Shown: piece by piece, positions 5,640 through 58,461 of the stretch
Layout of the letters: each line of letters starts with the position of its first letter
How positions within the stretch are numbered: the stretch's first letter is position 1
DNA from: Ginglymostoma cirratum
Lineage: Eukaryota
NCBI GenBank assembly: GCA_024137785.1
Contig: JAHRHZ010000058.1
Span: forward strand, 17,562,599 to 17,626,598
Direction of reading: 5' to 3'
Length of the DNA stretch: 64,000 nt
Position numbers and translations under genes: made by a program
The notes under the pieces: generated by a model
The model's input: the letters and a program-made list of their open reading frames with translations, nothing else
The model's database searches: none
Told to the model about the DNA's origin: nothing

Positions 5640-6890
5640 AGAATAGAAATAAGAATCAAAATTTTAAATGAAGTGAAAAATTTAAAAGAAATAAAAAGTG
5701 GAAGAAGGAATTGACTGCTGACATAAAAGAAAATCCTAAAGTCCTGTAAAGGACATATTTAAAAGGAAAAAGATGGTAAAAGGAGAGGAGTCTGGCTAAT
5801 TTAAGGCCCAAAAGGGACATTTTGCATGGAAGCAAGATATATGCCTGAGCTTTAACAGGAGGATCTTGCATTTGTGTTTACAAAAGAAGATGATGCTACC
5901 AAGGTCAGAGTGAAGGAGAGGTTAAAGCAGACTACTGCAGATGCTGGAATCTGTACTAAAAACAAGAAGTGCTGGAAATCGCGGCAGGTCACGCATGAGA
6001 GAGAGAGAGCAAGCTAACATTTTGAACCTAAATGACTCTTTATCAGAGATGATCAAGTGTCATCTAGACTTAGATTGCTTTCTGTCTCCATGGATGCTGC
6101 TTGTCCCACTGTGATTTCCAGCACTACTTGTTTTCAGTGAAAGAGAAGCTAGTCGAAACATCGGATGAATTAAAAATTGATAGAGGTACATTAGATAGGC
6201 TGAAGGTATTGGAGGAAGTAAGAGTGGGAAATGTGGAAGCAATGACCATGATCTTCCATTCCTCCTTAGTTACAGGAATGGCCACAAGAATGGGCAATTC
6301 CAATTGTTCAAAACATGGATGTGAAGATATGCCCAGCAACTATACGTCCATCAGTTTAAACTTGGTGGTAGGAAAGCTTTCAGGAATGATGATTTGAGAC
6401 AAAATTAAGAGTTATTTTGTCAACTGTGAATTAAGTTAGGCCAAACAAGTTTAGATTTGCTAAGGGGACTTCGTGTTTACCTAACTCAATGGAATTTTCC
6501 AAAGTAGGTTGATGAGAGACTAGGGGAAGGTATATGGTGGAATTCCCCAGTGGTCTGTTTCTGGACGACTGCTCTCCTTGATCTGTATTAATGACTTGAA
6601 CTTGGGTGTGTAGGGTGTAATTTTAAAGTTTGCAGATGATACAAAACTTGTAAGTATCAAAAAAATTGCAGAGAATAGTGATGGACTTCAAGAGGATGTC
6701 AACAGGCTGGTGGAATGGGCAAACACATGACAGATACAAGTTAACACAGCGAAGTGTGGTAGGAAGAATGGAGAAGTAATATAAAATAAAGGGTACAATT
6801 CTAAAGGTATTGCAGAAGCAGAGGGATCTAGGGGTACGTGTACAGAAGTCACTGAAGCTAGCAGAGCTGGTTGACCATACAGTTAGCAAG
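5640..6890 (+). mobile_element. Degenerate CR1-type LINE ORF2 fragment (internally deleted)
   Basis: NYRPVSL-like ccagcaactatacgtccatcagttt, SCLTNL-like tcgtgtttacctaactc, FADD-like aagtttgcagatgatacaaaac. Confidence 0.75.
5925..6135. mobile_element. Palindromic mini-PLE inserted into a CR1 fragment
   Basis: ctgcagatgctggaatc tail; arms aagtgctggaaatc / gatttccagcact; decayed hammerhead at centre. TSD AGTGAAGGAGAGGTTA (5909-5924) / AGTGAAAGAGAAGCTA (6136-6151), 13/16. Confidence 0.75.
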
Positions 6891-7469: not shown

Positions 7470-7715
7470 AAGTAAAAACCAAAAGAACTGTGGATGCTGT
7501 AAATCAGGAACAAGAACAGAAGTTGCTGGAAATGCTCAGCAGGTCTGGCAGCATCTGTGAAGAAAAAAATCAGAGTTGACGTTTCTGGTCGAGTGACCCT
7601 TTCTGAGAGGGGTCAGTCCTGAGGAAGGGACACTGGACCCAAAACGTTAACTCTGATTGTTTTTTCTTCATGGATGCTGCCAGACCTGCTGAGCTTTTCC
7701 AGCACCTTCTGTTTT
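7470..7715. mobile_element. Palindromic mini-PLE
   Basis: Arms gctcagcaggtctggcagcatc / gatgctgccagacctgctgagc; CTGAGGA...AAAACGTT decayed hammerhead. TSD AGCATCAACATACT (7456-7469) / AGCACCAAAATATT (7716-7729), 11/14. Confidence 0.8.
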
Positions 7716-20759: not shown

Positions 20760-20869
20760 GTAAGTACAAATTATTCTGTAACATCGTGACCAGGTTTCAT
20801 TCATAAATTACTTAAATATGGAAAAATATGCTAAAGGCTCTTAATCAGGCTCAAATTAATACAGACATA

Positions 20870-21240
20870 AGGAACAAGAAATCAGGATGAATGACAAAAA
20901 CTTGAGGGATACGTTTCAAAAAGGGTCAGTAGAGAGGAGAGAGATGTAGAAAGGTTTATGGAGGAAATACATGAATATACCTTATTAGCCCTACACAGTT
21001 GTAGGTACAGAGGCCATTAGTGGCGCAAAGAAAGGAGACAGTGTTCAAAATGCCAGAGTCAGACATCTGAATCTAGGAGAGAATTATGAGGTTGTAGGAG
21101 ATGACCAAAATGAGAAAGGGTAAGGCACGGAAGAAATCTAAACATGATTGACATTGTTAAATTTTGGAGGCATTTGGGAATTGGGAGACATTGTAGATCT
21201 GAGCAATTTCCATTGCTGGACAAGGGGCAGCTGCACAATT
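20870..21240 (-). mobile_element. L2-like 3' fragment
   Basis: Purine-rich agagaggagagagatgtagaaaggtttatggaggaaat..., typical of the reverse strand of L2 3' coding sequence. Confidence 0.4.
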
Positions 21241-21469
21241 GCCAGAATCTTACACTGCTCTGGGGGCAGATAGGCAGGAAGTATAAAATTAATGCAGTGC
21301 CACAAAATTGTTTTTGGAGCCTAGCCACCTTTCCCTACTCCTCCACAATTTCATTTGTAGCATTGGACAGTGGAACGATTGACAAGTAGCCAATTAATCA
21401 ACAGATGGAGATAACAAGCGTGGGGCTGGATGAACACAGCAGGTCAAGCAGCATCATAGGAGCAGGAAA

Positions 21470-21505
21470 ACTTGACGTTTCGGGCCTAGACCCTTCATCA
21501 GAAAT
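21470..21505 (-). ncRNA. Minimal type I hammerhead ribozyme (PLE-type)
   Basis: Reverse complement is identical to 23679-23714: atttCTGATGAagggtctaggcccGAAAcGTCaagt. Confidence 0.82.
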
Positions 21506-21773
21506 GGGGGAGGGGAAGAGGGTTCTGAAATAAATAGGGAGAGAGGGGGAGGCGGATAGAGGATGGATAGAGGAGAGGATAGGTGGAGAGGAGGCAGACA
21601 AGTCGAAGAGGCAGGGATGGAGCCAGTAAAGGTGAGTGTAGGTAGGGGGGTGGGGAGGAGATAGGTCAGTCCAGGCAGGACGGACAGGTCAAGGGGGCGG
21701 GATGATGTTAGTAGATAGGAGATGGGGGTGTGGCTTGAGGTGGGAGCAGGGGATAGGTGAGAGGAAAAATAGA

Positions 21774-22903
21774 TTAGGCAGGTGGAGATGAGCTGGGCTG
21801 GTTTTGGGATGCGGTTGAGGGAGGGGAGATTTTGAAGCTTGTGAAATCCACATTGATGCCATTGGGCTGCAGGGTTCCCAGGCTGAATATGATTTGCTGT
21901 TCCTGCAGCCTTCGGGTGGCATCACTGTGGCATTGCAGGAGGCCCAGGATGGACATGTCATCTGAGGAATGGGAGGGGGAGTTGAAATGGTTCGCGACTG
22001 GGAGGTGCAGTTGTTTGTTGCGAACTGAGCGCAGGTGTTCTGCAAAGCGGTCCCGAAGCCTCCGCTTGGTTTCCCCGATGTAGAGGAAGCCACAATGGGT
22101 ACAGCGGATGCAGTAGACCACATTGGCAGATGTGCAGGTGGACATCTGCCTGATGTGGAAAGTCTTCTTGGGGCCTGGGATTGGGGTGAGGGAGGAGGTG
22201 TGGGGGCAGGTGTAGCACTTCCTGCGGTTGCAGGGAAAAGTGCTGGGTGTGGTGCGGCTGGAGGGGAGTGTGGAGCGGACAAGGGAGTCGCGGAGGGAGT
22301 GGTCCCTCCAGAAGGCAGATAAGGGTGGGGAGGGAAAAATGTCTTTGGTGGTGGGGTCTGATTGCAGATGGCGGAAGTGTCGGAGGATGATGCGTTGGAT
22401 CCGGAGGTTGGTGGGATGGTATGTGAGGACGAGGGGGATTCCTTTTTGGTTATTATTGTGGGGACGGGGCGTGAGGGATGTGTTCCTGGAAATGCGGGAG
22501 ACACGGTCGAGGGCGTTCTCGACCACTGTTGGGGGGATGTTGCGGTCCTTGAAGAATGAGGACATTTGGAATGTATGGGAGTGGAATGTCTCATCCTGGG
22601 AGTAGATGCGGCGGAGGCAAAGGAATTGGGAATAGGGGATGGCATTTTTGCAGGAAGGTGGGTGGGAGGAGGTGTATTCCAGGTAGCTGTGGGAGTTAGT
22701 GGGCTTGAAGTGGACATCGGTTTCTAGGTGGTTACCCGAGATGGAGACAGAGAGGTCCAGGAAGGAGAGAGAAGTGTTGGAGATGGTCCAGGTGAACTTC
22801 AGGTTGGGGTGGAAGGCGTTGGTGAAGTGGATGAACTGTTCGAACTCCTCGTGGGAACACGAGGCGGCGCCGATGCAGTCATCAATGTAACGGAGGAAGA
22901 GGT
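21774..22903 (-). CDS. PLE ORF C-terminal part: RT (YIDD motif, thumb), Cys-rich linker, GIY-YIG endonuclease; 5'-truncated, no start
   Basis: Stop-free frame of about 376 codons: LFLRYIDDCI...SLSFLDL...VHFKPTNSHSYL...CNRRKCYTC...NVVYCIRCTHCGFLYIGETKRRLRDRFAEH...GTLQPNGINVDF. Confidence 0.9.
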
Positions 22904-23408
22904 GACTCCCTTGTCCGCTCCACACTCCCCTCCAGCCCCACCACACCCGGCACTTTTCCCTGCAACTGCAGGAAGTGCTACACCTGCCCCCACACCTCCT
23001 CCCTCACCCCAATCCCAGGCCCCAAGAAGACCTTCCACATCAGGCAGATTTTCACCTGCACATCTGCCAATGTGGTATACTGCATCCGCTGTACCCGTTG
23101 TGGCCTCCTCTACATCGGGGAAACCAAGCGGAGGCTTGGGGACCGCTTTGCAGAACACCTGCACTCAGTTCGCAACAAACAACTGCACCTCCCAGTCGCG
23201 AACCATTTCAACTCCCCCTCCCATTCCTCAGATGACATGTCCATCCTGGGCCTCCTGCGATGCCACCCGAAGGCTGCAGGAACAGCAAATCATATTCAGC
23301 CTGGGAACCCTGCAGCCCAATGGCATCAATGTGGATTTCACAAGCTTCAAAATCTCCCCTCCCCCAACCGCATCCCAAAACCAGCCCAGCTCATCTCCAC
23401 CTCCCTAA
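22904..23408 (+). pseudogene. Second, inverted copy of the PLE linker/GIY-YIG region with a frameshifting 11-nt deletion
   Basis: VYCIRCTRCGLLYIGETKRRLGDRFAEH is present. Near 23258 it reads cctcctgcgatgccaccc, whereas the other arm reads cctcctgcaatgccacagtgatgccaccc. Confidence 0.85.
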
Positions 23409-23678
23409 TCTGTTTTTCCTCTCACCTATCCCCTCCTCCCACCTCAAGCCACACCCCCATCTCCTATCTACTAACATCATCCCGCGCCCCCTTGACCTGT
23501 CCGTCCTCCCTGGACTGACCTATCTCCTCCCTACCCCCCTACCTACACTCACCTTTACTGGCTCCATCCCCGCCTCTTCGACTTGTCTGCCTCCTCTCCA
23601 CGTATCCTCTCCTCTATCCATCCTCTATCCGCCTCCCCCTCTCTCCCTATTTATTTCAGAACCCTCTTCCCCTCCCCC

Positions 23679-23714
23679 ATTTCTGATGAAGGGTCTAGGC
23701 CCGAAACGTCAAGT
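23679..23714 (+). ncRNA. Minimal type I hammerhead ribozyme (PLE-type)
   Basis: AUUU-CUGAUGA-A-GGGU(CUAG)GCCC-GAAA-C-GUC^AAGU. Full catalytic core, 4-bp stem II, 4-bp stem I, and a palindromic ACGU in place of stem III. Predicted cleavage after 23710. Confidence 0.82.
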
Positions 23715-25550
23715 TTTCCTGCTCCTGTGATGCTGCTTGACCTGCTGTGTTCATCCAGCCCCACGCTTGTTATCTCGGATTCTCCAGCATCTGCAGTACC
23801 TTTTATCCCCAGTCAACAGATGGAGGCCTTGTTCCATTCCTAACACACTTTTCCCACAGTCAACAGAGGGTGACATGAAGTCTGAAGGCTTTCAAATCTT
23901 ACTTTTCTAACTATTAATGGGAAAAAGAGGGAGAATACATCCTTTACATTTTCCTTGGCCTATCAGACGTCACTCCTAAAGTCTTTTGTTTCCTTCCATG
24001 TCATTGTATCCTAGACCCCATCCCCCCTGTGCCTGTTAGCCTGGCACCGCCAAACCTCTCTGAATATATTTCCCCATCTAGTTCCAGCAAAGATAACCAT
24101 CGGGGACTAGGTGCATGATTTGAGCCAGAGAACTGCTAGTCAGCTGTGCTCTGAGGTGACAGCTTTGTTTGTTACAGGTGGAAAAATGTTACCAAATATT
24201 TCCTTGATGAAGCAGATGCTTGATCCACTGCTCTTCACTCAGCTTCAGTTAGGAGAATTGCTTCTGAAGTTCCTAAGCAAATAAAATTTCCTGCTAAACC
24301 CCTTCTAAATCTCTCTCCCCATCCTGAGATAGCTTGTTTGCTGTACATGAGCTCTGTTCTTTCTCAAATTTGTTATTCAAAAGGAAATATCTAGTAGTTG
24401 CACTCGTGTTTCAGAGCAACTGATTTGTACTTAAACCTTGAAGTCAGCAAGAACTTTCTAAGTATCCTCCTTACAGATTTGTAAAACCTTATGAGAATTT
24501 ATACAAAGCACTAAACTCTTCTCTTGAAGCAATAGCTGAAAGAAATCAATGAGCAAACAATGTTTTAAGTATATAGTCATTTTAAAAATCACTGGTGGAG
24601 GTGGGTTTTTCCTGTTGGTGATCACGTGTTCAGCTTTGTAAATATAAGTTTGGAGAGTTGAGCTCAGCTGGTGTCAAAACAGTGTTGCATCCTGAAGATG
24701 GAGAAAATGAATCCAACCTCTTACCCACATATCTTTTCAAGTACGGCGATGAATTTAATGTTGGCAATAAATTTTTCTGTGTTCTGCCAGACCTTAAAGA
24801 TTGAGAATCAGGGAACCTTTTTGAATTACAGTTTTGGCAAGGATTTATGTGCATGCCAATGTCAGTGTTTGACTCCTTGGATGAAATGTGCCATTTTACA
24901 ATATCAAACTTAATTTGTTTGGCCAAAGCCCAGAAAAAGTCTGAATATTTGAACTCAGTGGAAATATTTTGCTTAAACACTATCATACAGCCAAACTATC
25001 CACATGGCATTCCTTCCAGAATACCAACAAATGGTCACTTGGACTGAAATCAAATGATAGATATGCCAAATGGTCTTTTATTGAATTAATTCTGGTGATG
25101 AGGAACGTCAGTCAGTTGGTAACTAAACTGGTGCACTTCAGGGTGACCATTAACAATTCTGAAAGATAGCAAACATAGCATGAAAGTTTATTTATTTTCA
25201 TTTTAATCAATGCATGTTTCACTATATAAGCAATTAGGAGAATGGTATATTTAGGTTGAGATGATTAGACTATTTTGCCTTTGCATATGATTTGACTATT
25301 ATGTTTTTGTATATAATTAGATTATGTTGTCTTTGTAATTCTATTTCATTTTATTGTGGTCATATATTTTATTACCATAATAATTGATATCTGACAAATA
25401 GCGCAACTGCTGTGTAATTCCTAGTTAAGACATATGACAACTTGCTTAAATGTGTAAGTGGAATGAAACTTCTAAACTATTAGAAAGTTTGATGTACTAC
25501 AAGAAAGCATGATTGATTTATTAATAAGTATCTAATTCCATACCCGTATT

Positions 25551-25657
25551 ATGCTGAGAAAATGCAATAAGTCTGGCAGCATCTGTGGAGAGAGAAAGAG
25601 AAGCCAGCACTCTCTGCTTTATTTCAGATTTCCAGCATCTGCAATATTTTGCTTTCA
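25551..25657. mobile_element. Internally deleted mini-PLE remnant
   Basis: gtctggcagcatctgtggagagag...tcagatttccagcatctgcaatattttgc matches the tails of the other copies. Confidence 0.6.
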
Positions 25658-27964
25658 TTTCCATATATTTGGATCAGAATAGAATTTTTAGATAATAAAA
25701 CATGACCAGCTTTTAAGTATTGTCCATTGGTTTTCTATTTGTGCTCTAATTAAAGCAGTTTAGAATTCAAAGTACCAACTTCTTCTTAAACTAAGCAATT
25801 GTAATCATTATGTTGAGTAGCAGGGTTGGAAAAGGTGAGTTGATCCAGTACAGAGAGTAGGAAAGGAACTGACCCAAGGAGAAACCAGGGAGCTGCAACA
25901 TTTGGTCTCTGTGGAGCTCCGGACACAGACCACTACCAGCAGCAGAGCTGAGCACTGGGGAAACTGAGCTGTTAGCAATAACATCCTTTCACAATGGTGA
26001 CCAGTCGCATTGATAAAATGGAAAAGCAGAGCTCTCTGATAGTTTAATTGTTGTTGACAATGCAAGAAGATGAAGGAGGGAATATGGAATATATCCGGGA
26101 CATGTCACATGAAATACGTCCATCCAAAGTTAGTGATGCTCTTGTGTAGATCAAATAAAACATGACATAAGCAATAGAATCTCTCACCACCCAAGACGTA
26201 ATGTCAATTCCCCTGGAGATATCAAAGGAGGGTTGGAGTTTGGATAAAGATGCACTGATGGCAATGTAATCTGGAGGGTGTTTACATGAAAAGGATTACT
26301 TTTCTCATAGAATTTCTCCCTGTCCATACTTTCCACACGTGAAAAGAAGGTGAAAACGAGAATATTTGAGCTTTTTTGAGAAAATTGCCAGGATATTGAG
26401 ACTTTAATGAGAAGCAAGGCTGACAACTCTACTTCACATCCTCAACAAGCTGAAGCAAAGCACCTCTCAGCCACAACTATTCATCAGCCAACTAAGTCCA
26501 GGGTCTACCTCAGGTGTAGCTCCTTTGTTTACACAACCAACTTAACAAAATTCTGGAAACCAGTTGTGGGTTGATCCTATTTCTCTTTTTTTTTTATGCA
26601 GTCCTCTCTGTCTATAATCTAGGAGCTTTTATATTCATCGCAGTTGTCAGGTTCCCAAAGAAATGTTGAGCAGCGCTGTTAAGATAGAGAGGTTTGGCAA
26701 AAGGGTGGGTCAACAGGTAGCAGAGGCCACAAGTTGAAAGGTCAGCAACAACAGGCTGGGTCAGGGAGAAAGGAACCCACTCCAAAATGGTACTGACCGG
26801 GTCATGTAGCCATACACGAGACCATCAATAAATAACTTTAAAAAGAAACTTGGAACACTAAACGAGAATACTGTCCCCATTAACTGACTGGCTGTAAAGT
26901 AAAACAACATTAATCAGACACTATTAAATAGGGGCCTACTATTCTGTTGTCCAACAAGAATCATCAACGTTAGTTATGTGCTTATTAATTGATATCTAGC
27001 CTCAATGGCATTTTAGGAGAGGGACTTGCACTTTTTCACTACCTGTCAGATGCCAGCTAATCCAACTGGATAGATTTGCCAACAGTGCACTCTTACAGTA
27101 TATGTCTAATTGGTGCAACAATGTGGTTGGTGGGCCCCATGATCAAAAATAAGCAGCAAAGATGCTTCTTAGAAAAATCTGACATAACCATTTGAATAGG
27201 CTGAACAGCCATTATCAGAAACAGTTAAATTTAAAAGCAAATGTAACTCTTCCCAACACATTTTGTAATAAAGAGCTGAGGTCTTGAGACTTTTCTCACT
27301 ATAGCTGAGTTAACATCACCAGAAACTGCCAAAGCGCTCAGAATGGAGTTATATATGGAACAGCAACTAAGTCATGAAGGTCTAACAGCTCTATTTATAC
27401 TTATGCATCAATTCCTTTGATTGTGCGGGTATTAATATAGATTTATATAATACAGTGTGGTGATATTTTTGACAGAATAACAGCATAATGGTCCAGATCT
27501 TCAAGTTAGAGTAGTGACAGACATTCATCTGTTTTCACTATTGAACTCTGGAATCAGAGAAAATCCCAATGTGCACCCATTCAAACTTCCAGAAAGCAGA
27601 AGTACAATATCTTCTCCCTTCCATTGATACCTCCAACAATATAATTCTTCTTATGGAATTGACTCTGCCATTGAGACTTGAGATAGATGCACTCAATTTG
27701 CCTAAATTTCTTTAACAGAATTCCTAGAACTTATGGACCAGAACTGATTTACAGCAGATGTTGTCAGAAGAAGATTTTTTTAAAAATACAGAACGTGTTT
27801 GAAAGCAAATTTCTGAACAATACCTACTTCACAGTCACACCAATTCTGCATTCCAAAGTTTATCATCCCAGGTTACACTGAGATCTTTAGTTGCTAATTT
27901 GATACTGCCATCTGTCATTGAATTTCATTGCAGTAAAGCAAGCATTCAGTTTAATATTAAATAG

Positions 27965-28775
27965 GGTTCAAAGGAATGGCAGATGGAGTTTAATTTAGAT
28001 AAATGTGAGGTGCTGCATTTTGGAAAGGCAAATCAGGGCAGGACTCATACATTTAAAGGTCCTGGGGAATGTTGCTGAAAAAAGAGACCTTGGAGTGCAG
28101 GTTCATATTTCCTTGAAAGTAGAGTTGCATGTAGACAAGATAGTGAAGGCAGCATTTGCTATGCTTACCTATATTGGTGAGTGCCTATACTGAGTATAGG
28201 AGTTGGGAGGTCATGTTCCGTCTGTACAGGACATTGGTTCGGCCACTTTTGGAATATTCTGGTCTCCATCCTATAGGAAGGATGTTGTGAAACTTGAAAG
28301 GCTTCAGAAAAGATTTACGAGGATGTTGCCAGAGTTGGAGGGTTCAAACTGTAGGGTAGGGCTGAATAGGCTGGGGCTATTTCTTCTGGAGCATCGGAGG
28401 CTGAAGGGTGACCTTAGAGGTTTATAAAATCATGAGGGACATGGATAGGGTAAATAGGCAAGGTCTTTTCCTTGGAGTGGAGCGTTCAAAACTAGAGGGC
28501 ATGGGTTTAAGGTGAGAGGGGAAAGATATAAAAGGGATGTAAGGGGCAACTTTTTCACACAGAGGGTGGTGTGTAAATAGAATGAACTGCCAGAGGAAGT
28601 GGTCGAGGCTGGTACAATTACAACGTTTAAAAGGCATCAGGTTGGGTATATGAATAGGAAGGGTTTAGAGGAATATGGGCCAAATTCTGGTGAATGGAAC
28701 TAGATATCTAGTTGGCATGGACAAGTTGGACCGAAGTGTCTGTTTCCATGCTATATTTCTCTATGCCTCTATGAC
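27965..28775 (+). mobile_element. CR1/HER1-type LINE 3' end
   Basis: ORF 28203-28427 FWSPSYRKDVVKLERLQKRFTRMLP...LEHRRLKGDL; tail ctctatgcctctatgactcta. Confidence 0.9.
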
Positions 28776-29340
28776 TCTAATAAATTACGCAGATGTAGAG
28801 ATGAAGTACACAGATTTTAGTATTTCATCTTTTGAGGTGGATAGATGTTTCAGTTGCAAATTTATTTCATTCTGAATATTCTTCAGAACTAACATTGTGG
28901 TTGCTAGGATTATTGATGCTGTTTCACTTCAATGAAAATTAATTCATTGTACTAGAGTATTGATGACATAAAATAGTTATGTCAGTTGTCAAAGGACTTT
29001 AAGATATGTGATCTATAATGGAATAGTCTATTCATTTCATTCAGTAAATTATTAATTTAAATTCATGCCAAAGTTTAGTACATATCCGATAGATCTTTCC
29101 AGTTATAATACTGAAAGTACTTTTTTTTGCTATTTTACCACAGTTACACAGTTCTTTGTGGCATCTTTTGTTCTTTACTATGATCTCATCAAACCTGCCA
29201 AGCACCAATTGTAAAAGAGATATAATGCTGACTGGACACTATGTGGGGGCAGGGATCATGAATTGGGGAAGACATTAAAGCTTAAAATGTGGAATGGTGA
29301 ACATTGGATTAAAGCACTCACTACACACCTCTTTTCTTAG

Positions 29341-29790
29341 AGGTAAAAAGAACTGTAGATGCTGGAGTCAGAGACAACACAGTATGGAGCTGGAAGAACA
29401 CAGCAGGTCAGGCAGCATCAGAGGAGTAGGAAAGGTGATGTTTCGAGTCAGGATCCTTCTTCCGAAATGGGGAGGGGGAAGGGACCTGGGAATAAATAGA
29501 GAGAGGAGGGGTGGGGCTGGGGAAGGTAGGTGCGTTGGTGATAATGAGTGCGGGTAGGGAGTGGTGGGAATTGGTCAGAGGAATGGGTGGGGCGAATAGT
29601 TGGGAGAGAAGATGGACAGTTGGTGTCAGGTCAAGGAGGCAGGGATGAGAGGGAGAGTTGGACATGGGTTAAGGCCAGGGGTGGGGAAATTTTAAAACTG
29701 GTGAATTCCATGTTTAGGCCATCGGGCTTGTAGTTTCCCAAGGCAAAATATGAGATGTTGCTCCTCCATTTTGCAGGTGGTGTCAGTATG
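29341..29790 (-). mobile_element. 5'-truncated PLE 3' end (related subfamily, includes ORF C-terminus and decayed hammerhead)
   Basis: Colinear with 21408-21925 (aataaatag.gagagg..., ggggaaattttaaaactggtgaattccatgtttaggccatcggg); hammerhead reverse complement atttcggaagaaggatcctgactcgaaacatc. Confidence 0.8.
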
Positions 29791-31019
29791 ATTTTCTTAA
29801 TTTCTCAGATGTTTACCCTGCCATTTTGTCACAGATCTTGCAGTTAATCTTAAATGAACAGCAGCAGCTGTATTATGCACTTATACTTGCCGCAGATTTT
29901 TCATTGAAATATATGATGTTGAGAAAGGCTTTTGTGTGTTGCCCTCTCCAGGGATTTGTATGAACAGAATATGTATCTTTAGCCAATCAGATTGAAGAAT
30001 CCTGAATGGTAACAAGCAGAGTCTGATTCAGGGTGTCTAAAGCAAGATCTTGAATTCAATGTCACCTATGTACAGAAACCAAATTAGAGAGGGAAAGAAA
30101 GATAAAAGAGACAGAAAGAAAGCATTTTTAAAGTTTCCCTCGATAATTAAAAAAAAAGGAATGTGATTCCATGGTTGTAAAAGTCAATTTTCAGTACCAG
30201 GATAATTATTTGATGATAATTAATCATACTATTCCAAAATATACTTACACTGGAATAGACATGCATTAACCATTTTTAGCATGTTGAGTGAGCGTCTTGG
30301 TAAGATGCAGGTATATAACTCAGCTTCCGAAGCAGCCTAATCAGATAACAACTTCCTGATTTCTACATTTAATTATTCATGAGTAGTCATTGTAAGTTAC
30401 TGTCAGATTAACTCTTTAAAGATGCTGAATAATGAAAGCCTCACAATATCCAGCCATTACGTTGGAAAATTAGAGGACCGGCTACATGTGACCATGATCA
30501 TCCATATATCTCCATGAATGCTGTGCCTTATGATAGGGTACAGTCCTTGGGTTCTATAGCCCTCTCGTATCTTATTCCAGCAACCATTTTCTCTGTAGAT
30601 ACAGTGACAGTGAGCACCAGCAGGCTGTTCAATAGCAGGGCATTTCAAAGTTGAATTCCATCTATATGGTCAACAGCAACACATGAACACTTTCCAGTGA
30701 GAATCACGAAATATAAGTCAGAAATCTGAACCCTAATAGAGTTTGCCTGTTCCAATTCCATGTAGATCTTCTAAAGATGTAAATGGTTTTGCTTTCTAGC
30801 TAATTAAAAAAAGATGTTCTAGTCTTCATGAATAAAGAGCAGCAGTGGATAGTCTTTACTCATTGCAGATCGTCGCAATCCTTATTATCCAATTTAACAA
30901 TAATATCTCAATCTTCTTGATGGTACAGAACAATTTATATGCTTAATGTATATGTTAGATCAATATGGTGTTAGGAATATAGTTACATTTCCATTGCATA
31001 TAGTATTGCAATCAAAATT

Positions 31020-32615
31020 CAGAGCTATGTAGGAAATTGGCAACAGGACCTCCAAAGTAGTAATCTCCCTATGCAACAAAGAAGTGAGTAGAGGAACAGG
31101 AGGATAAGTCACATCAATGCATGGCTAGATAGATGGTTCAGGAAGCAAGGCTTAAGATTGATGAGATGTTAGAACCAGCTGTGAGGAAGTTTTGTCCTAT
31201 ACAGGCCAGATGGTTTGCTCCTGATCTGAGCTGGTACTGAGTTCTTCATGAAGCATTTTGCTAGTGCTATTGGGGAGGGCTTAACTAACTTGACAGGGGT
31301 GTAGGAAAGTATCAGAGTGGAATACTAAGGTGCATGAATTACTGGGAGAGATAAAACACATTAGATTAGAAAATAGTGAATGAAAATGTTGCGTCAGAGT
31401 AAGGAAGAAAGTAATAAAACATAGATCAAAATCAATATACATGTATGTGTATGTACAGTGTGTGGTAAATAAAGATTGGTGAGTTGCAGATGCAGATTGT
31501 CACATGGAAATAGTATGTTGTGGCTATAACATAGACTTGGCTCAAGGAAGTCTGGATAGGTTGTTGCAATTGTTTTCTAGATACAAGTTGTTTACGCAAG
31601 ATCGGAAAGCACAAAAGGGAAGAGGTGTGGAGAAACATTAGTGAATAACGGTACTACACTATTATCGTAGGGGGTGCAGGAGCAGTGAGTCCTGTCTGTA
31701 GATGTGCATAAACAATTAAACATGGCATGACAGGTTGCAAGAGTAGTTAATGCATAAAGTTTCCTGGACTTTCTAAAGGAGCATAGATTAAAAGAGCAAG
31801 GAGGTTGCTTTTTGTGAGAGTCCCTTCAAGCCCAAAATGGTCTAATACGGATTAGGATACCCATCTTTCTGATCTAACTAAAAGAGTCAGGTTGACTACA
31901 TAGCTACAGACACTGTTAGGAGTACACTAGCCCAAGTTCTGTCTCCCATAAACTCCTCTTTTACCTTGAACAAGTAACCTTGATATCATCTCAATGTGTG
32001 ATTTTTATTGTTCTCAATCGATAATTAACTCTTTCAGACCATTTCAAACGTATGCACAGCAGTTAATTGTATTCTAGACAAACATGTATAAACATTAGTT
32101 CGACCTCAGCCGGACTTTGCATCCAGTTCTGGGCACTGCATTTTAGGAAGAATATGAAGACATTTGAGAAAGTGAGAAAGAGATTTATTAGAATTACTCC
32201 AAGGATGAGGGATTTCTCATATGTAGATGTTTGGAGAGCTGGCGCTGTTTTCCTTTGAGAAGAAAAGGCTGAAAGGAGATCTGATAGAAGTATTCAAAAT
32301 ACTGAGAAATCTGGACAGATTAAATAAGGAGAAAGTGTTCCACCTCATGATATTGGATTGAGAATGAGAAGGCACAGTGAAGTAAGAAACTACACCAGTG
32401 CTTAGCATACATTGCCACAAAGTATTCTGGAAGTACGTTCAATTGAAGCATTCAAAAACTGAATTGGATGGTTATTTGAAAGAACCACTGTGCAAGGTTA
32501 CAGGGAGAAGTCACAGGAATAGCACTAAGTGAGATGCTCATTTGGAGAGTAAATGCAGAAATAAAGGGCTGAATGGCTTCCTGTTGTGCTGTAATAATGT
32601 TTGTGATTCTATATT
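31020..32615 (+). mobile_element. Fragmented CR1 (ORF1 esterase-like, APE start and RT 3' pieces) with unrelated insert at about 31807-32078
   Basis: aatgcatggctagatagatggttcagg (NAWL.RW ORF1-like); gtggctataacatagacttggctc (VAITETWL-like); CIQFWALHFRK...KRFIRI. Confidence 0.7.
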
Positions 32616-34931
32616 ATGTGCACCGTAATATGCAAAATTCCAGCAGAATTTAATGTTTTTCTATGAATTTCAACATGTCATAAGTAAAGATAACTAAGAG
32701 GAAATGAATTAAAAATAATAAGCAGACTTAATGTAGATTGTGATTGCAAAGGTTTTATAAATACAAAATTAACATACTCAATCAAGGCTACAATTTTGGG
32801 GAGAAAGACCAATGTGAGTAGGAGATAAATAGAATAGACTCTAGACAAAAGCAATGTATCTCATTGAAAACAGAATGAAGCGTAAAGACTCCTTTTTCTC
32901 CCCCCATGGAGGATAATGGTTTTTGTGCGATTGTGAATGTGGATGATTTTCTGTGGCATACAATAGGTCAGAGCCTAATATTGTACATGAGATAGGATGA
33001 AGTTATTGCAGTTTTACTTGATTACTTCAGAGTCATGACACTACTTTGTGGAGTTGGTGAGTTTGTTCAATTAAATATTATATTTTTCATAATGTATGGT
33101 AACTTATCTATTCACACATGCAACATTCATTCGTATGCTGCAAATTCTAATTTTTGATCAGTTTTTGATCACCATCAAACTGTTTACCTGGATTAATTTT
33201 TGCTTTAAAATGCAGTGGAAATAAATCATCTATATTGCGTGCACACAAAAAAAACCTGTCTCTTGCTTCAAAACTTTATCCATATTTCAACACCAGCATG
33301 TGATTATCAGACCAAGATTCTAAAGCTCAAAACTTCACTCAAACTTTAATAAACAGTTCTGAAGCATAATATTCAATTTAAGGTGGGAGTGATTTATACT
33401 TTGGGAAATTATAAGCCTGGTATGCTCAATCTTCAAAATCTTAAATGAAGAACTTACTGATTATCTTTTGCTCAAGAAGTTTTTATTATGGTTTGAAAGT
33501 ATTGATAGATTACTAGTGGATATCCAGTGCAAATTAGAAATACCATAAAACAATTTTTAGTGAACTGAAAGGTTGACAAATTAAAATATCTTTAATTCTT
33601 TGTCTTTTTTGAACCAAAGTGATACTGGAACTGACATAAGAGCAGTCAGCAAAGAAATCCCATACCTGACTTGGACCTAAGCTAAGTCAAACATTGTGTT
33701 TAATTAAATACTCAATTATAAAATCTGTTCCAAAGGTTCTGGTCTAAAGCAGAATTGTAAATGCTAAGAAAATGAGAAGATTAACATGGGCAAAGTTTGT
33801 GTTCCGTTGACCTCAGAAGATAATGGATAATTAACAAACTGCAACCAGGATTTCCCTTTTCTTACCTTAAGTATTGAGGCAGGTGTGTTTAAGAGTGAGA
33901 CACTCCCTACCCCCACCAATGAGAGACCCTATCAGATCATATAACAATCAGGCACTTCAGCCAACAGTTTTTGGGAGAGTGATACCCTAGTCTGTCTGAG
34001 AATTGAACATTCAAAAAACAGTAGCAGCTGGGAGCAACATTGCTGGTTTGGAGGCCCAGGGTAGTGGCTGTACAGTACAACAGAACCCGGGAGCAGTGGG
34101 AAGGTAAATTTTAGGGGGAGGATCGTGGGGCTGTTGGCACAGGGAGAAAGAATGCATCAGAATCAGAATAAAGGCAGAGGGATGGCAATCATCATCCACC
34201 TTCCTCTCATCCAAGCCCCCGATCACCCAAATTGACCCCATCACTATTATCCCAGTGTACAGACTGTCACATTGTAGCAGTCAGAGAGGCCTCCGACCAC
34301 TTTTCTCAACTGTCAGGAACAAAGTTAATGGGGGCCAGTAAGGAGCAGAGGCTTTTAATTGGTGGCAGGTCTGGAAGGTTGACCATCAGCTTTACGATCC
34401 TGAAGTAATTTCTGAAGTGGCAGAAAGAGGACAGATATCTCCCTGTTGCCCACCTGTCTGATTATCTGCCTTTCCTAACACCTTTCCTGCCACTTCCTAG
34501 GAGTGTAAAATCTTGATCTTGGTGTGTTATAAAATCTAAGATGTTTTGAGGTTCTGTTTATGAAAGCTGAGAATGAAAACGTTGCAAAGGGTATACAGTT
34601 AGAAGAGTCGACAAAAGGAAGAGGAACATCATATGTTTTGTGGCACAAGTAACATTCTTAATTAAGCTCGGTTGATTGAAGAAAGCTACCAAACAAGTAG
34701 TATCATTATCATTTTAAACCACGATTATTTCACCTGCTTATGTTTGCATCATATTACATAACAATATTATCAACATGCAGGATTTCAAATTAATTTGCAC
34801 TTCATGTATAGAAGATGGGGGTTCAGATCCCAGTTTGGCTAATATTAAGATTTTTCATATCTTTCTTCAAAAGTTTCAGTAATGTGATAAATTTAACTAG
34901 CTCTGTTTCTACTTTCCGTTTTCATCTTCAG

Positions 34932-37104: not shown

Positions 37105-37262
37105 GTTGGATTGCATTACCTATTTTCTGTAATGTTTTTATGATACAATTTGGGATAATCTAGTTATACCTCTTGCCCCTGCTAACTACACTGCTAACAA
37201 GGAAGTTAATAGAATCTCCGCCAGTATGAGTCATATCTGAAAACAGTAGGTAAGAAATTAAT

Positions 37263-37360
37263 GAGATAACAAGCATGGGGCTGGATGAGCACAGCAGGTC
37301 AAGCAGCATCATAGGAGCAGGAAAACTTGACGTTTCGGGCCTAAACCCTTCATCAGAAAT
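37263..37360 (-). mobile_element. About 95-bp solo PLE tail (hammerhead-only insertion), same young subfamily as 21408-23812
   Basis: Near-identical to 21408-21505. TSD AGAAATTAAT at 37253-37262 and 37355-37364, the latter overlapping the element end. Confidence 0.88.
37325..37360 (-). ncRNA. Minimal hammerhead ribozyme, intact core
   Basis: Reverse complement atttCTGATGAagggtttaggcccGAAAcGTCaagt; differs from the 23679 motif only in loop II. Confidence 0.8.
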
Positions 37361-37429
37361 TAATATTCAATTAACAAAACAGTGCTGTAGTTTAGCCTGG
37401 CTATAGACAGATGAAAGGTCTGGCTGTCT

Positions 37430-46160: not shown

Positions 46161-48104
46161 ATGAAATGTTACTGGTGGAGATTATAGTCTGATTATGTTG
46201 TTTCATGAAAACTATGATCTGGATTTTATGGGATGACAGCCAGGCTCCCTGCCTTTGCTCAGCTAAAATGTCAGTGAGGAGACAGACAGACAGACAGACA
46301 CTGCCCATGGGAAGAATGGCTGTCCACTATCATTTAACACAATTGGATGCTAATGGGCTAGAGGTAGGATTTCCACTCCTCAGGGACAGAAGTCCTACCT
46401 CAGAATAAATAGACAGCCAATCTGTAGTGCCAGAAGCACCCTGCAGGAGTTGAAGCTAATGCAGGGATTAAGACAATCTCCATTAAGGCACATTGTCTAA
46501 GGAGCTGGATACCGAGATAAGCAGCATGGTGAGGTTGGTCTCGTTGAGTTTACCCTCGCAGGCTTCAGTAAAGAGGGTGGTGAGCGTGGGTATGAGAGGC
46601 TGACATAGGCAGTGGTCAAAAGAAGAATGGGGTCGGGGTACTTACAATGGGCACACAGAAGCTACAAAGGAGGGCCCTTGCCCCAACCATGTCTTGCCCC
46701 AACCTTCCATAAGCTGAGCTCTGCCAGCTAAAATTACTGCACTGTCAGTTTGGTGTGCCCCTCCATACCCCAAACACTGTGGGGTAAAGTACTGTTAAAT
46801 ATGGGATGAAGCTTGTGAGTCACCACCACTTAAGAGAAGGCCAAAGATTGAACTGTATGAATCACTACCTTCTACAGTGAAGCAACATAAAATCCAGCTA
46901 ATATTAAGTTGGATGAGGCTGTGGTATGGAGCAGATTACTGCTAAAAATCAACTAAAGTGGACATAGACTATCCCGTGTCATTGATCTTAAAATACCTTT
47001 GCTATTCTGGCAGCTACATTATAGAATTCCTGCCAGCTTTGTCTCATTCCTATGAATTTTCACAGCTGTGTTTCTGTATTCAGTAGCAGAGGGTAAACCA
47101 ACTGTAATCACAATACCGTACCACATAGCTCATGCTGGACTGATAGTAGCAAGTTTGGATTCAACAAAGTGGTTCAAAGCCAAATCACCTCTCTTCAAAT
47201 GAGACTAATCAATTGCGTGTTTTGGTCACAAATGGGAATTTTAGATCTAATGTTGTTGTGGTGCTATTTGTCTCATAAGTTTGCAGTTGAGTTTGTCCTC
47301 CTGGTAGCAGTGGTCCAGAGCAAAAGACAGAACTTCCACGCTCCACTTTGGCCTAGTTTCCAATTCCTGTGTATAGTAGGTTCCCAATAGATTTGCAAGC
47401 ATCATTGCATTCCAGCTTGTGTTGGCTGCTGGAAATTATACATAGCTAGAATTGAGATTTCTTTCCACTAGACTTATTTCCATTTCTGGTGTTACATTAA
47501 ATCCCTCACTAGGCAGTGTCAGAGTGACAGTGATTAGTTGCAGACCATCCACTTATTTATTTCAGTGGAGAGGGGAACAGAAGGTAGAATGGAAATGTAA
47601 TGGACAAATGTCAGCCTTCTCCGGCAGCATCATTATATTTTTTAAAAATGGCTTGACTTGCCGACTTTTCCATCCATCACTTGAGAGTAACACATGGAAT
47701 TCATTCACATCTGAACATTTATAAAGTAATGTCAGATTTTTAAAGACAGATTTAACTTATTTTGCTTTAAAATGGTTATTATTATAGGGTTTTTATTTAC
47801 GTTCTGCTTGTACATAAAAAGAACTCTGATCTCAGATACTTTCATTAAAGTGGAGGTCAAATATAGCTAGGCACTTTCAAAAGTCTGAAAATAACACATG
47901 TTGCTTGGAAAGAGGAAATGTTTGAAGGACAAAGTTTTAAAAAATACCAGTGCAACTTGTATTTCCACTCATTTTACGATCAAAATAAAATGTAAGATCA
48001 GCAGGTGAGATGAAATCGAGATCAGAGTATAAAAATAAAAGAAATGAGAACATACCATTCGGCTCATCTAACCAATATCCTTCATATTATGTAATCCATT
48101 CTAT

Positions 48105-48311
48105 AGCAGCACCTGTGAAGAAAAAAATCAGAGTTAACGTTTCAGGTCCGGTGACCACTCCTCAGAACTGTTTTGAAAAAGGGTCACCAGACGCAAAGTG
48201 TTAACTCTGATTTTTTTTCTTCATAGATGCTGCCAGACCTGCTGAGCTTTTTCCAGCAACTTGTTTTTGTTCCTGATTTGTGGCATTCGCAGTTCTTTCG
48301 GTTTTTATTTA
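48105..48311. mobile_element. Palindromic mini-PLE (same subfamily as 7470-7715, opposite orientation)
   Basis: Arms gaagaaaaaaatcagagttaac / gttaactctgattttttttcttc. Perfect 14-bp TSD GTAATCCATTCTAT (48091-48104, 48312-48325). Confidence 0.88.
48132..48169 (-). ncRNA. Minimal hammerhead ribozyme, second subfamily
   Basis: Reverse complement agtt-CTGAGGA-gt-GGTC(ACCG)GACC-t-GAAA-c-GTT^aact; perfect stem I AGUU/AACU. Confidence 0.7.
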
Positions 48312-48780
48312 GTAATCCATTCTATCTTCATTGGTCCCATTCTCCACTCTCCAAGAAAAATTCTCCAATATTTTCAATATTAAAATAAACCAACTTGGGT
48401 AATTTTATTATACATCCTGGCCAGGTTGATATATTTCCATGGTCTTCAGAACTCAAGAAACATGAAATTGATAATTTGCATAACTAATTACTCAAGTAAA
48501 GAAATTGAATATAGCAACTAATCAAAATGGAATGGCTGTAATATGACAACAATGGGTCTGAATAATGCAAACATGCTGAGTAGAGGACAGTATCAGTTTC
48601 TAAACAAATACTTTGTTGCAGAATTAACAATATTCTGCACTTTAACTTCTTAGAGTTTGTAAATAGAAGCAGACTTTGAAAATGATGTTTTGACACAACT
48701 GCAGAATTTATTCAGTGTTTTCACTTGGATTAATAGAACAATATTTTTTTGATTCTGAAATCTAGTTATCTTTCTCACAG

Positions 48781-51000: not shown

Positions 51001-51603
51001 TGCAGGAGACTATAACCCATACAAAATAACAGTTGAGAATAGAATGGATTATGTAAGATATGTATTATTATGGTATGGGATAGTTAAACATTGTGTTTCA
51101 GATCATTATTTCTGCAAACTCCTTCAGGCCAGATATATGAATAAATGAATTTGTTTTTTCACAAAATGTTATTTGGTACTGTATCATGATTTTCTGATCC
51201 ATTCCAATCAGAAACTTGCAAAGATTAGGAGTTAAAGAAATTTCAAATGGCACAGATACTTTGGCAATGTGGTCACTGAGCTTATTTAATACATTTCTAC
51301 AGGCTGACATTGAGTATCATGTGCACTTGAAAGAAGTACTGAAAGGGAAACTCTTAAATAGAAGTTCCTCCTTAAGAAATGGTTTTATTGCCTGCACCTT
51401 ATGCCACCATCTTTCTCCTGCCCCTCTCAACACCCTTACCAAACTTAAATTCAGCAGTAAAGGCACGTGGTTGGTGGGCAGCTTACTGCAATTCTGCCTG
51501 TCTGCTTGTCAACGAATCAGATATGGTTGAGGTGGTCAGGAAGGTGAAGGTCAGCAGGCTGTTTCCTAACAATTTGTTAGATAGGCAAGAAGGAAGAGGG
51601 GAA

Positions 51604-51742
51604 GAGATCACAAGCGTGGGGCTGGATGAACAGGCCCGAAACGTCAAGTTTTCCTGCTCCTATGATGCTGCTTGACCTGCTGTGTTCATCCAGCCCCATG
51701 CTTGTGATCTCGGATTCTCCAGCGTCTGCAGTACCTTTTATC
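51604..51742. mobile_element. 139-bp inverted mini-PLE, same young subfamily as 21408-23812
   Basis: Short inverted arm gagatcacaagcgtggggctggatgaaca followed by a sense tail ending gcagtaccttttatc. Perfect 14-bp TSD AAGGAAGAGGGGAA (51590-51603, 51743-51756). Confidence 0.9.
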
Positions 51743-52189
51743 AAGGAAGAGGGGAACGTCATTTGAGGGGCTGTGCCTTTGTATGCATCAGGGACATCCC
51801 CACTCATCCTTGGGGGATCCTGCAGACCTTCTGTGCAAAATTCACTGTATGACTCTCATATTGATTAGAGTTTAACATGTTTAAATTGTCAATTAAATTG
51901 ACAACTGTAAAACCTCGTTGTGAATTTATCAGCAAATCTGTCAGATTAGTTTTAAAATCTTCCCTCTTTTATTTTGCTGTCCTCCTATTTTGCAGGCTTT
52001 GAAGCCTAAGTTTATCATCACCAATCATTATTCTTCATTTAGCTTATCCTTCCTACAATTATTTTCAACCTACTTATCCTGGCAATGACATAAAATCCCC
52101 AATAGAAATAATTGTCAACCATATGTTTTATCTGCAATGACATTTTGTTAAATGCGTCTGAATTGGTAATCAATAAGTTTCAAATATAG

Positions 52190-53215: not shown

Positions 53216-53362
53216 AATATAATAACTAGTTTCAATTGCAGTGGTTATGAAGACAGAATCCTAATTGATGAATGCCTGTCACAAAATCTAGAAATTTGGT
53301 TAGCATTTTGTTAATCATGTTGAAAAAGTGACATTTTTGCCAATATTTATGCCCATTTCTGA

Positions 53363-53492
53363 TGTTCTGAAGAAGTCATACCAGACTCAAAACATTAACT
53401 TTGTTTGTCTCTCTTCAGATGTTGCCAGACCTGCTGAATTTCTCCAGCATTCTCTGTTTCAGATTTTCAGCATTCACAAGAATTTTGTCTTT
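53363..53492 (+). mobile_element. Mini-PLE tail with decayed hammerhead
   Basis: gttCTGAAGAagtcataccagactcAAAAcattaac...gatgttgccagacctgctgaatttctccagcattc. Confidence 0.7.
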
Positions 53493-57949: not shown

Positions 57950-58070
57950 TCACTCAACCTGAAACATTAATTCTGATTTCTCTCCACAGTTGCTGCCAGA
58001 CCCGCTGAGGTTTTCCTGCAATTTCTGTTTTTGTTTCTGATTTACAGCATCTGCAGTTCTTTCAGTTTTT
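57950..58070 (+). mobile_element. Mini-PLE tail fragment
   Basis: cctgaaacattaattctgatttctctccacagttgctgccagacccgctgagg...tttacagcatctgcagttcttt. Confidence 0.7.
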
Positions 58071-58243
58071 AAATTAGGAAAGAATTCAGAATAGATCTGA
58101 AAGTAGTTGTACTAACATTGAAAAGAGGTGAATTCAAATTATGAATTTCGCTGGACAGGTACAAAACAAAGACATTTAGCCTTCTTTGTTTATCCATCTA
58201 TAAAACTAACAGACCTCATCACAATATCCAACTATTTTGCAAA

Positions 58244-58461
58244 TTGAAGTAGAAAATGCTGGAAATACTCAGCTAGCCTGGCAGCAATTGCGGGGAGAGA
58301 AACAGTTTTAATGTTTCAGATTGATGAACTGATAAAAGGTTATTCGCCTGAAACATTAATTCTGTTTCTTTCTCCCACAGATGCTGCCAAATTGATTTGA
58401 GTATTTCCAGCATTTTCTGTTTTCACTTCAGATTTCCAGCATCTGCTGTACTTTGTTCTTG
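58244..58461. mobile_element. Palindromic mini-PLE (older)
   Basis: Arms agaaaatgctggaaatactca / tgagtatttccagcattttct; central decayed hammerhead CTGATAA...CCTGAAACATT. Confidence 0.75.

Follow-up and report, generated by a model that had tools for sequence, protein, structure and literature searches.

A head-to-head dimer of a Penelope-like element in a shark genome: one decaying insertion, perhaps primed on both target strands

A stretch of 64,000 nucleotides from the shark Ginglymostoma cirratum (assembly GCA_024137785.1, contig JAHRHZ010000058.1, positions 17,562,599 to 17,626,598 of the forward strand; hereafter the window, by which all positions are numbered) contains two 5'-truncated copies of a Penelope-like element (PLE), joined head-to-head at 22903/22904 with their 3' ends outward. 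The unit very probably stems from one insertion of a Neptune/Nematis-type PLE, which took place after the split from a related species (species A) and has been decaying neutrally since. Priming of complementary DNA (cDNA) on both target strands from one source is a somewhat better than even prospect. To the best explanation overall, that of a single, later decayed insertion made by dual priming, we assign a probability of roughly 0.6.

The inverted arms occupy 21408-22289 and 22904-23776, with 614 nt between them. Their alignment spans 881 columns, of which 868 are ungapped and 20 are substituted (2.3%); on the right-arm side there are also an 11-nt deletion at ~23259, which breaks the frame, and a 2-nt insertion at ~23483-23484. 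The left copy (21411..22903, minus strand, 1493 nt) runs from just before the YIDD motif of the reverse transcriptase (RT) to a tail-less 3' end, and its 5' part, absent from the right arm, constitutes the 614-nt spacer (22290..22903, minus strand). The right copy (22904..23812, plus strand, 909 nt) starts just upstream of the cysteine linker and extends 36 nt beyond the shared end into the PLE tail (23777..23812, plus strand), which the left arm lacks. These two element ends, 36 nt apart, are discrete and recur in other copies; the last 5 nt of the tail are missing from that of a copy at 51.7 kb. The head-to-head junction (22903..22904) has no palindrome (fold z -0.84) and no inserted bases, and its microhomology is ~1 nt, or perhaps as much as 3 nt should a CpG have decayed there.

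The whole unit is bracketed by the 13-bp direct repeat TCAACAGATGGAG, found on the plus strand at 21398..21410 and 23813..23825. There are exactly two plus-strand copies of this 13-mer in the window, and none on the minus strand. The last 3 nt of the left copy (GAG, 21408-21410) belong both to the target-site duplication (TSD) and to the tail-less 3' end of the element. In a control for flanking repeats, none of 600 random position pairs scored 12 or more, and the repeat around the dimer scores 13.5. The initial annotation of this DNA, which had described two outward-pointing truncated copies fused at about 22903, near-identical arms around a 614-bp spacer, a 13-bp TSD and arms differing by several substitutions and an 11-nt deletion, agrees with all of this; the arm alignment that it proposed as a check adds the 2-nt insertion.

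The orthologous site appears to be empty in species A, as expected with one 13-mer. The public sequencing runs that contain the right flank come from several samples of species A, with a share of at most 0.31. Four public sequencing runs were aligned to 22290-25800, two of which (X1 and X2) are different samples of species A. Record 30 of X2 (1364 nt, depth 10.7) and record 6 of X1 (971 nt, depth 14.5), both of single-copy depth, match 23813-24161 from the first base of the right TSD copy, and their upstream letters (998 and 605, respectively) fall outside the element. Among the contigs listed for organisms B and C (X11 and X13), none spans the TSD. The search for an empty site in a related shark, also suggested by the initial annotation, thus gave an apparent one, and together with the exact 13-mer it supports the earlier view that the unit was integrated in one event and that its TSD is genuine. 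Two independent insertions, a product of ectopic recombination or an assembly artefact would be very improbable accounts of the unit. The family is very abundant and the junction is covered by no own-species reads, but the 13-bp repeat on either side of the unit is exact and agrees with the apparent empty site, and flanking repeats above control surround five of the eight dimers in the window. Moreover, since the arms differ at 20 sites and by two indels, neither is an assembler's mirror copy of the other. Opposite-strand joints linking 22292-22312 to 22902-22904 were considered as evidence of inversions and rejected, as they arise because only one arm was aligned.

The coding remnant identifies the element. 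An open reading frame (ORF) on the minus strand, from 22901 to 21777, holds 375 sense codons and begins LFLRYIDD; with its stop codon it occupies 21774..22901 and comprises the end of the RT core (YIDD), the thumb region, a CX4CxxC linker and a GIY-YIG endonuclease. The linker (amino acids 224-232; 22206..22232, minus strand; C224-x4-C229-x2-C232) is of the Neptune/Nematis type. The endonuclease matches Pfam PF01541 (E 3e-06, 27.9 bits against a cut-off of 22.6) and contains the CCHH motif, in the form VVY-CIRCTHC-GFLYIG followed by H289 and H305. According to the available text of PMC8557442, the CCHH motif marks canonical PLEs and a CX2-5CxxC linker marks Neptune and Nematis, while the linker Zn-finger is absent from the Penelope/Poseidon clade. 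With RT and C-terminal GIY-YIG in one frame, the sequence places the element among the canonical PLEs with a C-terminal endonuclease (EN+), of the Neptune/Nematis type. Membership of the Penelope/Poseidon clade was considered and fails, since the linker Zn-finger is present. Nematis occurs mainly in nematodes. Neptune is known from fishes (PMC4209133, in the part available), and by host range only it is the likelier of the two.

Among 199 protein matches to the frame, the best are the shark proteins P0013 (Rhincodon typus, 89%) and P0014 (Stegostoma tigrinum, 84%), which makes a carpet shark the probable host. A search for longer proteins gave 12 relatives (31-47% identity). Relatives reach 700-900 amino acids, and longer ones have the RT domain PF00078. 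Eleven of the 12 come without a source name and none is named as shark, which is weak evidence on full-length shark copies. Because the frame represents only the C-terminal part of such an ORF, with most of the RT core missing, it cannot encode a working RT. The initial annotation was right about a run of some 376 stop-free codons (375 sense codons by our count) with YIDD, a Cys linker and GIY-YIG, with the qualification that this is only the C-terminal portion of the ORF. Its identification of a PLE with a Neptune-type linker is likewise supported by CX4CxxC and PF01541, the linker being shared with Nematis.

Both arms contain a putative minimal hammerhead motif, located by pattern scan at 23683..23710 (plus strand) and, as its mirror in the left arm, from 21501 to 21474 (minus strand). 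The candidate consists of CUGAUGA, one extra A, stem II and GAAAC-GUC. Judged against the minimal-hammerhead features in the accessible part of PMC4209133, it has the core, the extra base after A9, the G10.1-C11.1 pair and the palindromic CG. An Rfam search of 21300-23900 (E up to 5) detected no hammerhead and returned two chance matches to lncRNAs, and the predicted fold of this stretch is not unusually stable (z 0.74 and 0.61). Several species A contigs show joints from 23711 to 23676-23680, inside this region.

The age of the insertion can be judged from its arms and flank. The right flank differs from species A at 60 of 2023 positions (3.0%), and the arms differ from each other at 20 of 868 (2.3%), five of these changes being of the CpG type. 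The ratio of arm to flank divergence is 0.78 (Poisson 95% 0.44-1.25), or 0.58 (0.30-0.98) without the CpG-type changes. Assuming that the two arms started out alike, about half to three quarters of the time since the species split has passed since the insertion. The only measured shark mutation rate, as reported in the available text of PMC10587355, is 7e-10 per base per generation (interval 1.4-14.1e-10). This rate comes from another species, and even its upper bound gives a rough age of several million generations. Gene conversion between the arms, or changes that are not clock-like, could shift the estimate.

The pattern of the arm differences fits neutral decay after insertion. Eleven of the 13 coding differences are non-synonymous, where neutrality predicts 73-76% (p 0.53-0.75), and the data reject dN/dS values up to 0.3 (P ≤ 0.008). 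Of 317 positions at which the whale-shark and zebra-shark relatives agree, the left frame differs from them at 20, and 11 of these 20 departures sit in the 614-nt spacer. Among the 20 are D69N, C100Y, F122I and R154G, at which five further relatives mostly or all retain the other residue. Both arms have private replacements with respect to the relatives. At two positions, I337 and S340, the arms agree with each other, and the corresponding residues of their two nearest relatives are L and R, which points to a common source of the arms. In simulations of 1.15-2% decay the frame stayed free of stops in 59-73% of cases and free of indels in ~27%. As a stop-free frame is thus expected by chance, its presence here indicates neither youth nor function.

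This evidence does not support the words 'young', which the initial annotation had used of the insertion, and 'recently or still active', used there of its family: the arms are 2.3% apart against 3.0% for the flanks, the differences are neutral in pattern, and conserved sites have been replaced. A currently active element was tried as a candidate and failed on the arm divergence and on D69N, C100Y and R154G. The earlier annotation had also allowed that the arms either came from two template RNAs or diverged later; divergence after insertion explains the data, and two templates are needless. Dual priming on two already diverged template RNAs, drawn from different subfamilies, would permit a very recent insertion and would reconcile 2.3% divergence between arms with a perfect TSD. 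Variants of the family are plentiful in species A (84,794 contigs in X2 and 131,630 in X1), and non-autonomous, decayed templates might be mobilized in trans. However, active templates would show purifying selection, whereas most of the differences between the arms are non-synonymous and one deletion shifts the frame; the unpaired part of the left arm is equally decayed (11 of the 20 departures lie in the spacer); and a perfect pair of 13-mers is expected at 2.3% divergence. We consider two templates improbable.

The formation of the dimer is best accounted for by dual priming from one source. In this scheme the element protein, probably a dimer, would cut each target strand once, with 13 nt between the nicks. 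From the top-strand 3' end (…GAG), cDNA synthesis would begin at the tail-less start site and extend for 1493 nt; from the bottom-strand 3' end, it would begin at the tail start site and extend for 909 nt. Both cDNAs, still incomplete, would then be connected to each other where they are 5'-truncated, with little microhomology, and the 13-mer would be duplicated by fill-in. Both arms would derive from the same source RNA or locus and would have been alike at birth, their differences arising later. For a PLE from a lizard, nicking and extension of both strands and two start sites of reverse transcription, which delimit the tail, have been reported, and the protein is predicted to be a dimer (PMC11167929, in the sections available). 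With one start site per strand, dual priming would directly explain why the tail is one-sided.

The main competitor is self-priming, in which an antisense RNA or a free tail-bearing cDNA would fold back and be copied to a hairpin, lose one tail by trimming, and insert at a 13-nt staggered cut. Self-priming has been proposed for head-to-head PLE structures (PMC3846280, as far as its available text goes) and predicts that the arms start out alike, in line with the variants that they share. That proposal, however, rests on junction palindromes, and the present junction has none (fold z -0.84, with 1-3 nt of microhomology). It also requires an additional trimming step that happens to stop at the standard tail-less end, an end that follows directly from two RT start sites. 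On balance self-priming is unlikely, though it is the most credible of the alternatives. A variant in which the cDNA folds back while still anchored to the target was examined and is excluded: the left arm has no tail, the 614-nt spacer and the 36-nt tail each occur in one arm only, and since each arm thus has sequence that the other lacks, a target-anchored cDNA cannot make the second arm by copying itself. The suggestion in the initial annotation that both target strands primed cDNA synthesis is accordingly plausible and favored, in keeping with the in vitro data of PMC11167929 (available part), with self-priming as the less likely route.

Several points weigh against the explanation by a single, neutrally decaying, dually primed insertion. 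At the empty site we infer the join to the left flank, since the compared stretch, 22290-25800, excludes that flank, and the central junction rests on the assembly, no own-species reads having been found. The in vitro data on both strands come from an element of another clade, Poseidon. A self-primed hairpin trimmed on integration would yield the same final structure. With 13 coding differences, a dN/dS near 0.5 is borderline (P 0.04-0.07), and the 20 arm differences are read without allele frequencies for the family. Finally, six of the eight transversions between the arms (21582-22255 versus 22938-23602) are C<->G, compared with 4 of 18 flank transversions among the 40 listed flank changes (p 0.026 before correction for GC content, 56% versus 37%); this unexplained excess could indicate that part of the differences did not arise in a clock-like way.

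The architecture is not peculiar to one locus. A search of the window with a profile of the 3' module gave 17 matches (E up to 10), read as 12 loci. Eight are head-to-head pairs (~0.8, 5.9, 7.5, 21.4, 25.6, 48.1, 51.6 and 58.3 kb) and four are single (29.3, 37.3, 53.4 and 58.0 kb). Flanking repeats of 11-14 bp stand above control at five of the eight pairs (at most 0.8% of random pairs score as high); the other three (7.5, 25.6 and 58.3 kb) have no TSD above control. The tail is present on one arm only in all eight, by score in six and by reading of the alignment in the other two. The tail-less end of the 21.4-kb dimer recurs in the 51.6-kb and 37.3-kb copies, both of the same subfamily. The former is a mini head-to-head dimer (51590-51756) with a 28-nt tail-less arm, a 111-nt tailed arm and a 14-bp TSD without mismatch; one variant common to both of its arms is missing from the three other young copies. 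The latter is a single tail-less copy of 98 nt (37253-37364) with a 10-bp AT-rich TSD and a 5' end just upstream of the hammerhead core. Three older dimers have related end modules and a tail on one arm: 764-997 (flanking repeat of 12 bp, one mismatch), 5909-6146 (11 bp, one mismatch) and 48091-48325 (14 bp, exact). The older head-to-head pairs that lack a TSD above control lie at 7481-7715, 25553-25660 and 58250-58456, the second of which is covered by species A contigs and so predates the species split. Single older 3' fragments are found at 29342-29800, 53353-53480 and 57958-58075; that at 29.3 kb retains a short piece of the ORF end (tblastn, 29679-29747). By eye, short arms tend to start just upstream of the hammerhead core (790-990, 7560-7660, 37340-37365, 48130-48200 and 53355-53375).

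With dimers so common in the window, the whole unit might have been retrotransposed from an already inverted master copy, and PLE transcripts can be multimeric (PMC11167929, in the part available). The dimers differ from one another in junctions and arm lengths, however, and both outer ends of the 21.4-kb unit are standard element ends; a master copy is quite improbable, even slightly more so than two templates. As a tentative generalization of dual priming, somewhat short of an even chance, the asymmetric head-to-head dimer may be the usual PLE integration product in this shark lineage, made by a dimeric complex with a 10-14-nt staggered cut and one RT start site per strand.

The unit lies in a GT..AG intron of ~14.2 kb (20760..34931, plus strand), between two exons of one Ig domain. 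The host gene, which we take to be hemicentin-like from its exon pattern, comprises no fewer than 16 exons for Ig domains, on the plus strand between 2350 and 63500 of the window. In the pre-mRNA, the 870-nt, 96%-identical inverted repeat would fold into long double-stranded RNA, on which editing or small-RNA pathways might act.

Taken singly, the locus matters little, as its architecture is already in the literature and this copy of the element is dead. It is of use as a clean test case: its arms are long, its TSD is exact and its orthologous site is apparently empty, so that target-anchored fold-back can be excluded and neutral decay of the arms demonstrated. For the origin of PLE inverted structures, self-priming has been proposed (PMC3846280), and the later steps of insertion are described as 'yet to be validated' (PMC11167929), each in the text available. 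If true, asymmetric dual priming would explain why exactly one arm carries a tail and would replace the self-priming model. The density of eight dimers in 64 kb suggests that shark genomes can be used to test, statistically, how such structures form.

In the literature searched (which excluded supplements and, for the most part, subscription journals) no description of shark PLE dimers was found. P0013 (Rhincodon typus) and P0014 (Stegostoma tigrinum) belong to the same family over the whole 375-amino-acid query; they are other copies and are not labeled as PLE at source. In L1 twin priming, too, both target strands prime and the resulting inversion is flanked by a TSD. The L1 segments, however, are non-overlapping parts of one RNA, whereas the shark arms share the same 3' end. 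The inverted dimer is in itself a known architecture, as the initial annotation had stated (PMC8557442 and PMC3846280, in the parts available), and is the rule in the 64-kb window. An adjacent inverted, 5'-truncated copy and a one-sided tail are typical of EN+ PLEs according to the available text of Craig et al. 2021 (PMC8557442). The canonical insertion outlined there resembles the shark unit in pairing a 5'-truncated copy with an adjacent inverted one, in its flanking inverted repeats, in a 30-40-bp tail at one end and in a hammerhead within the end module; the shark unit differs in having neither a full-length copy nor a partial tandem, both arms being truncated inside the ORF. The PAc element (Poseidon of Anolis) resembles the shark element in having two RT start sites that define the tail and in the nicking and extension of both strands, but belongs to the Poseidon clade, which lacks the CX2-5CxxC linker, and inverted products are not described in the available part of its report (Frangieh et al. 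2024, PMC11167929). The elements Pen2a, Pen2 and Pen3a of Adineta vaga are alike in their head-to-head structure, 8-10-bp TSDs, optional 31-bp tail and verification by empty sites (Arkhipova et al. 2013, PMC3846280, as far as available). Their junctions are often palindromic, whereas the shark junction is not, and the shark TSDs measure 10-14 bp.

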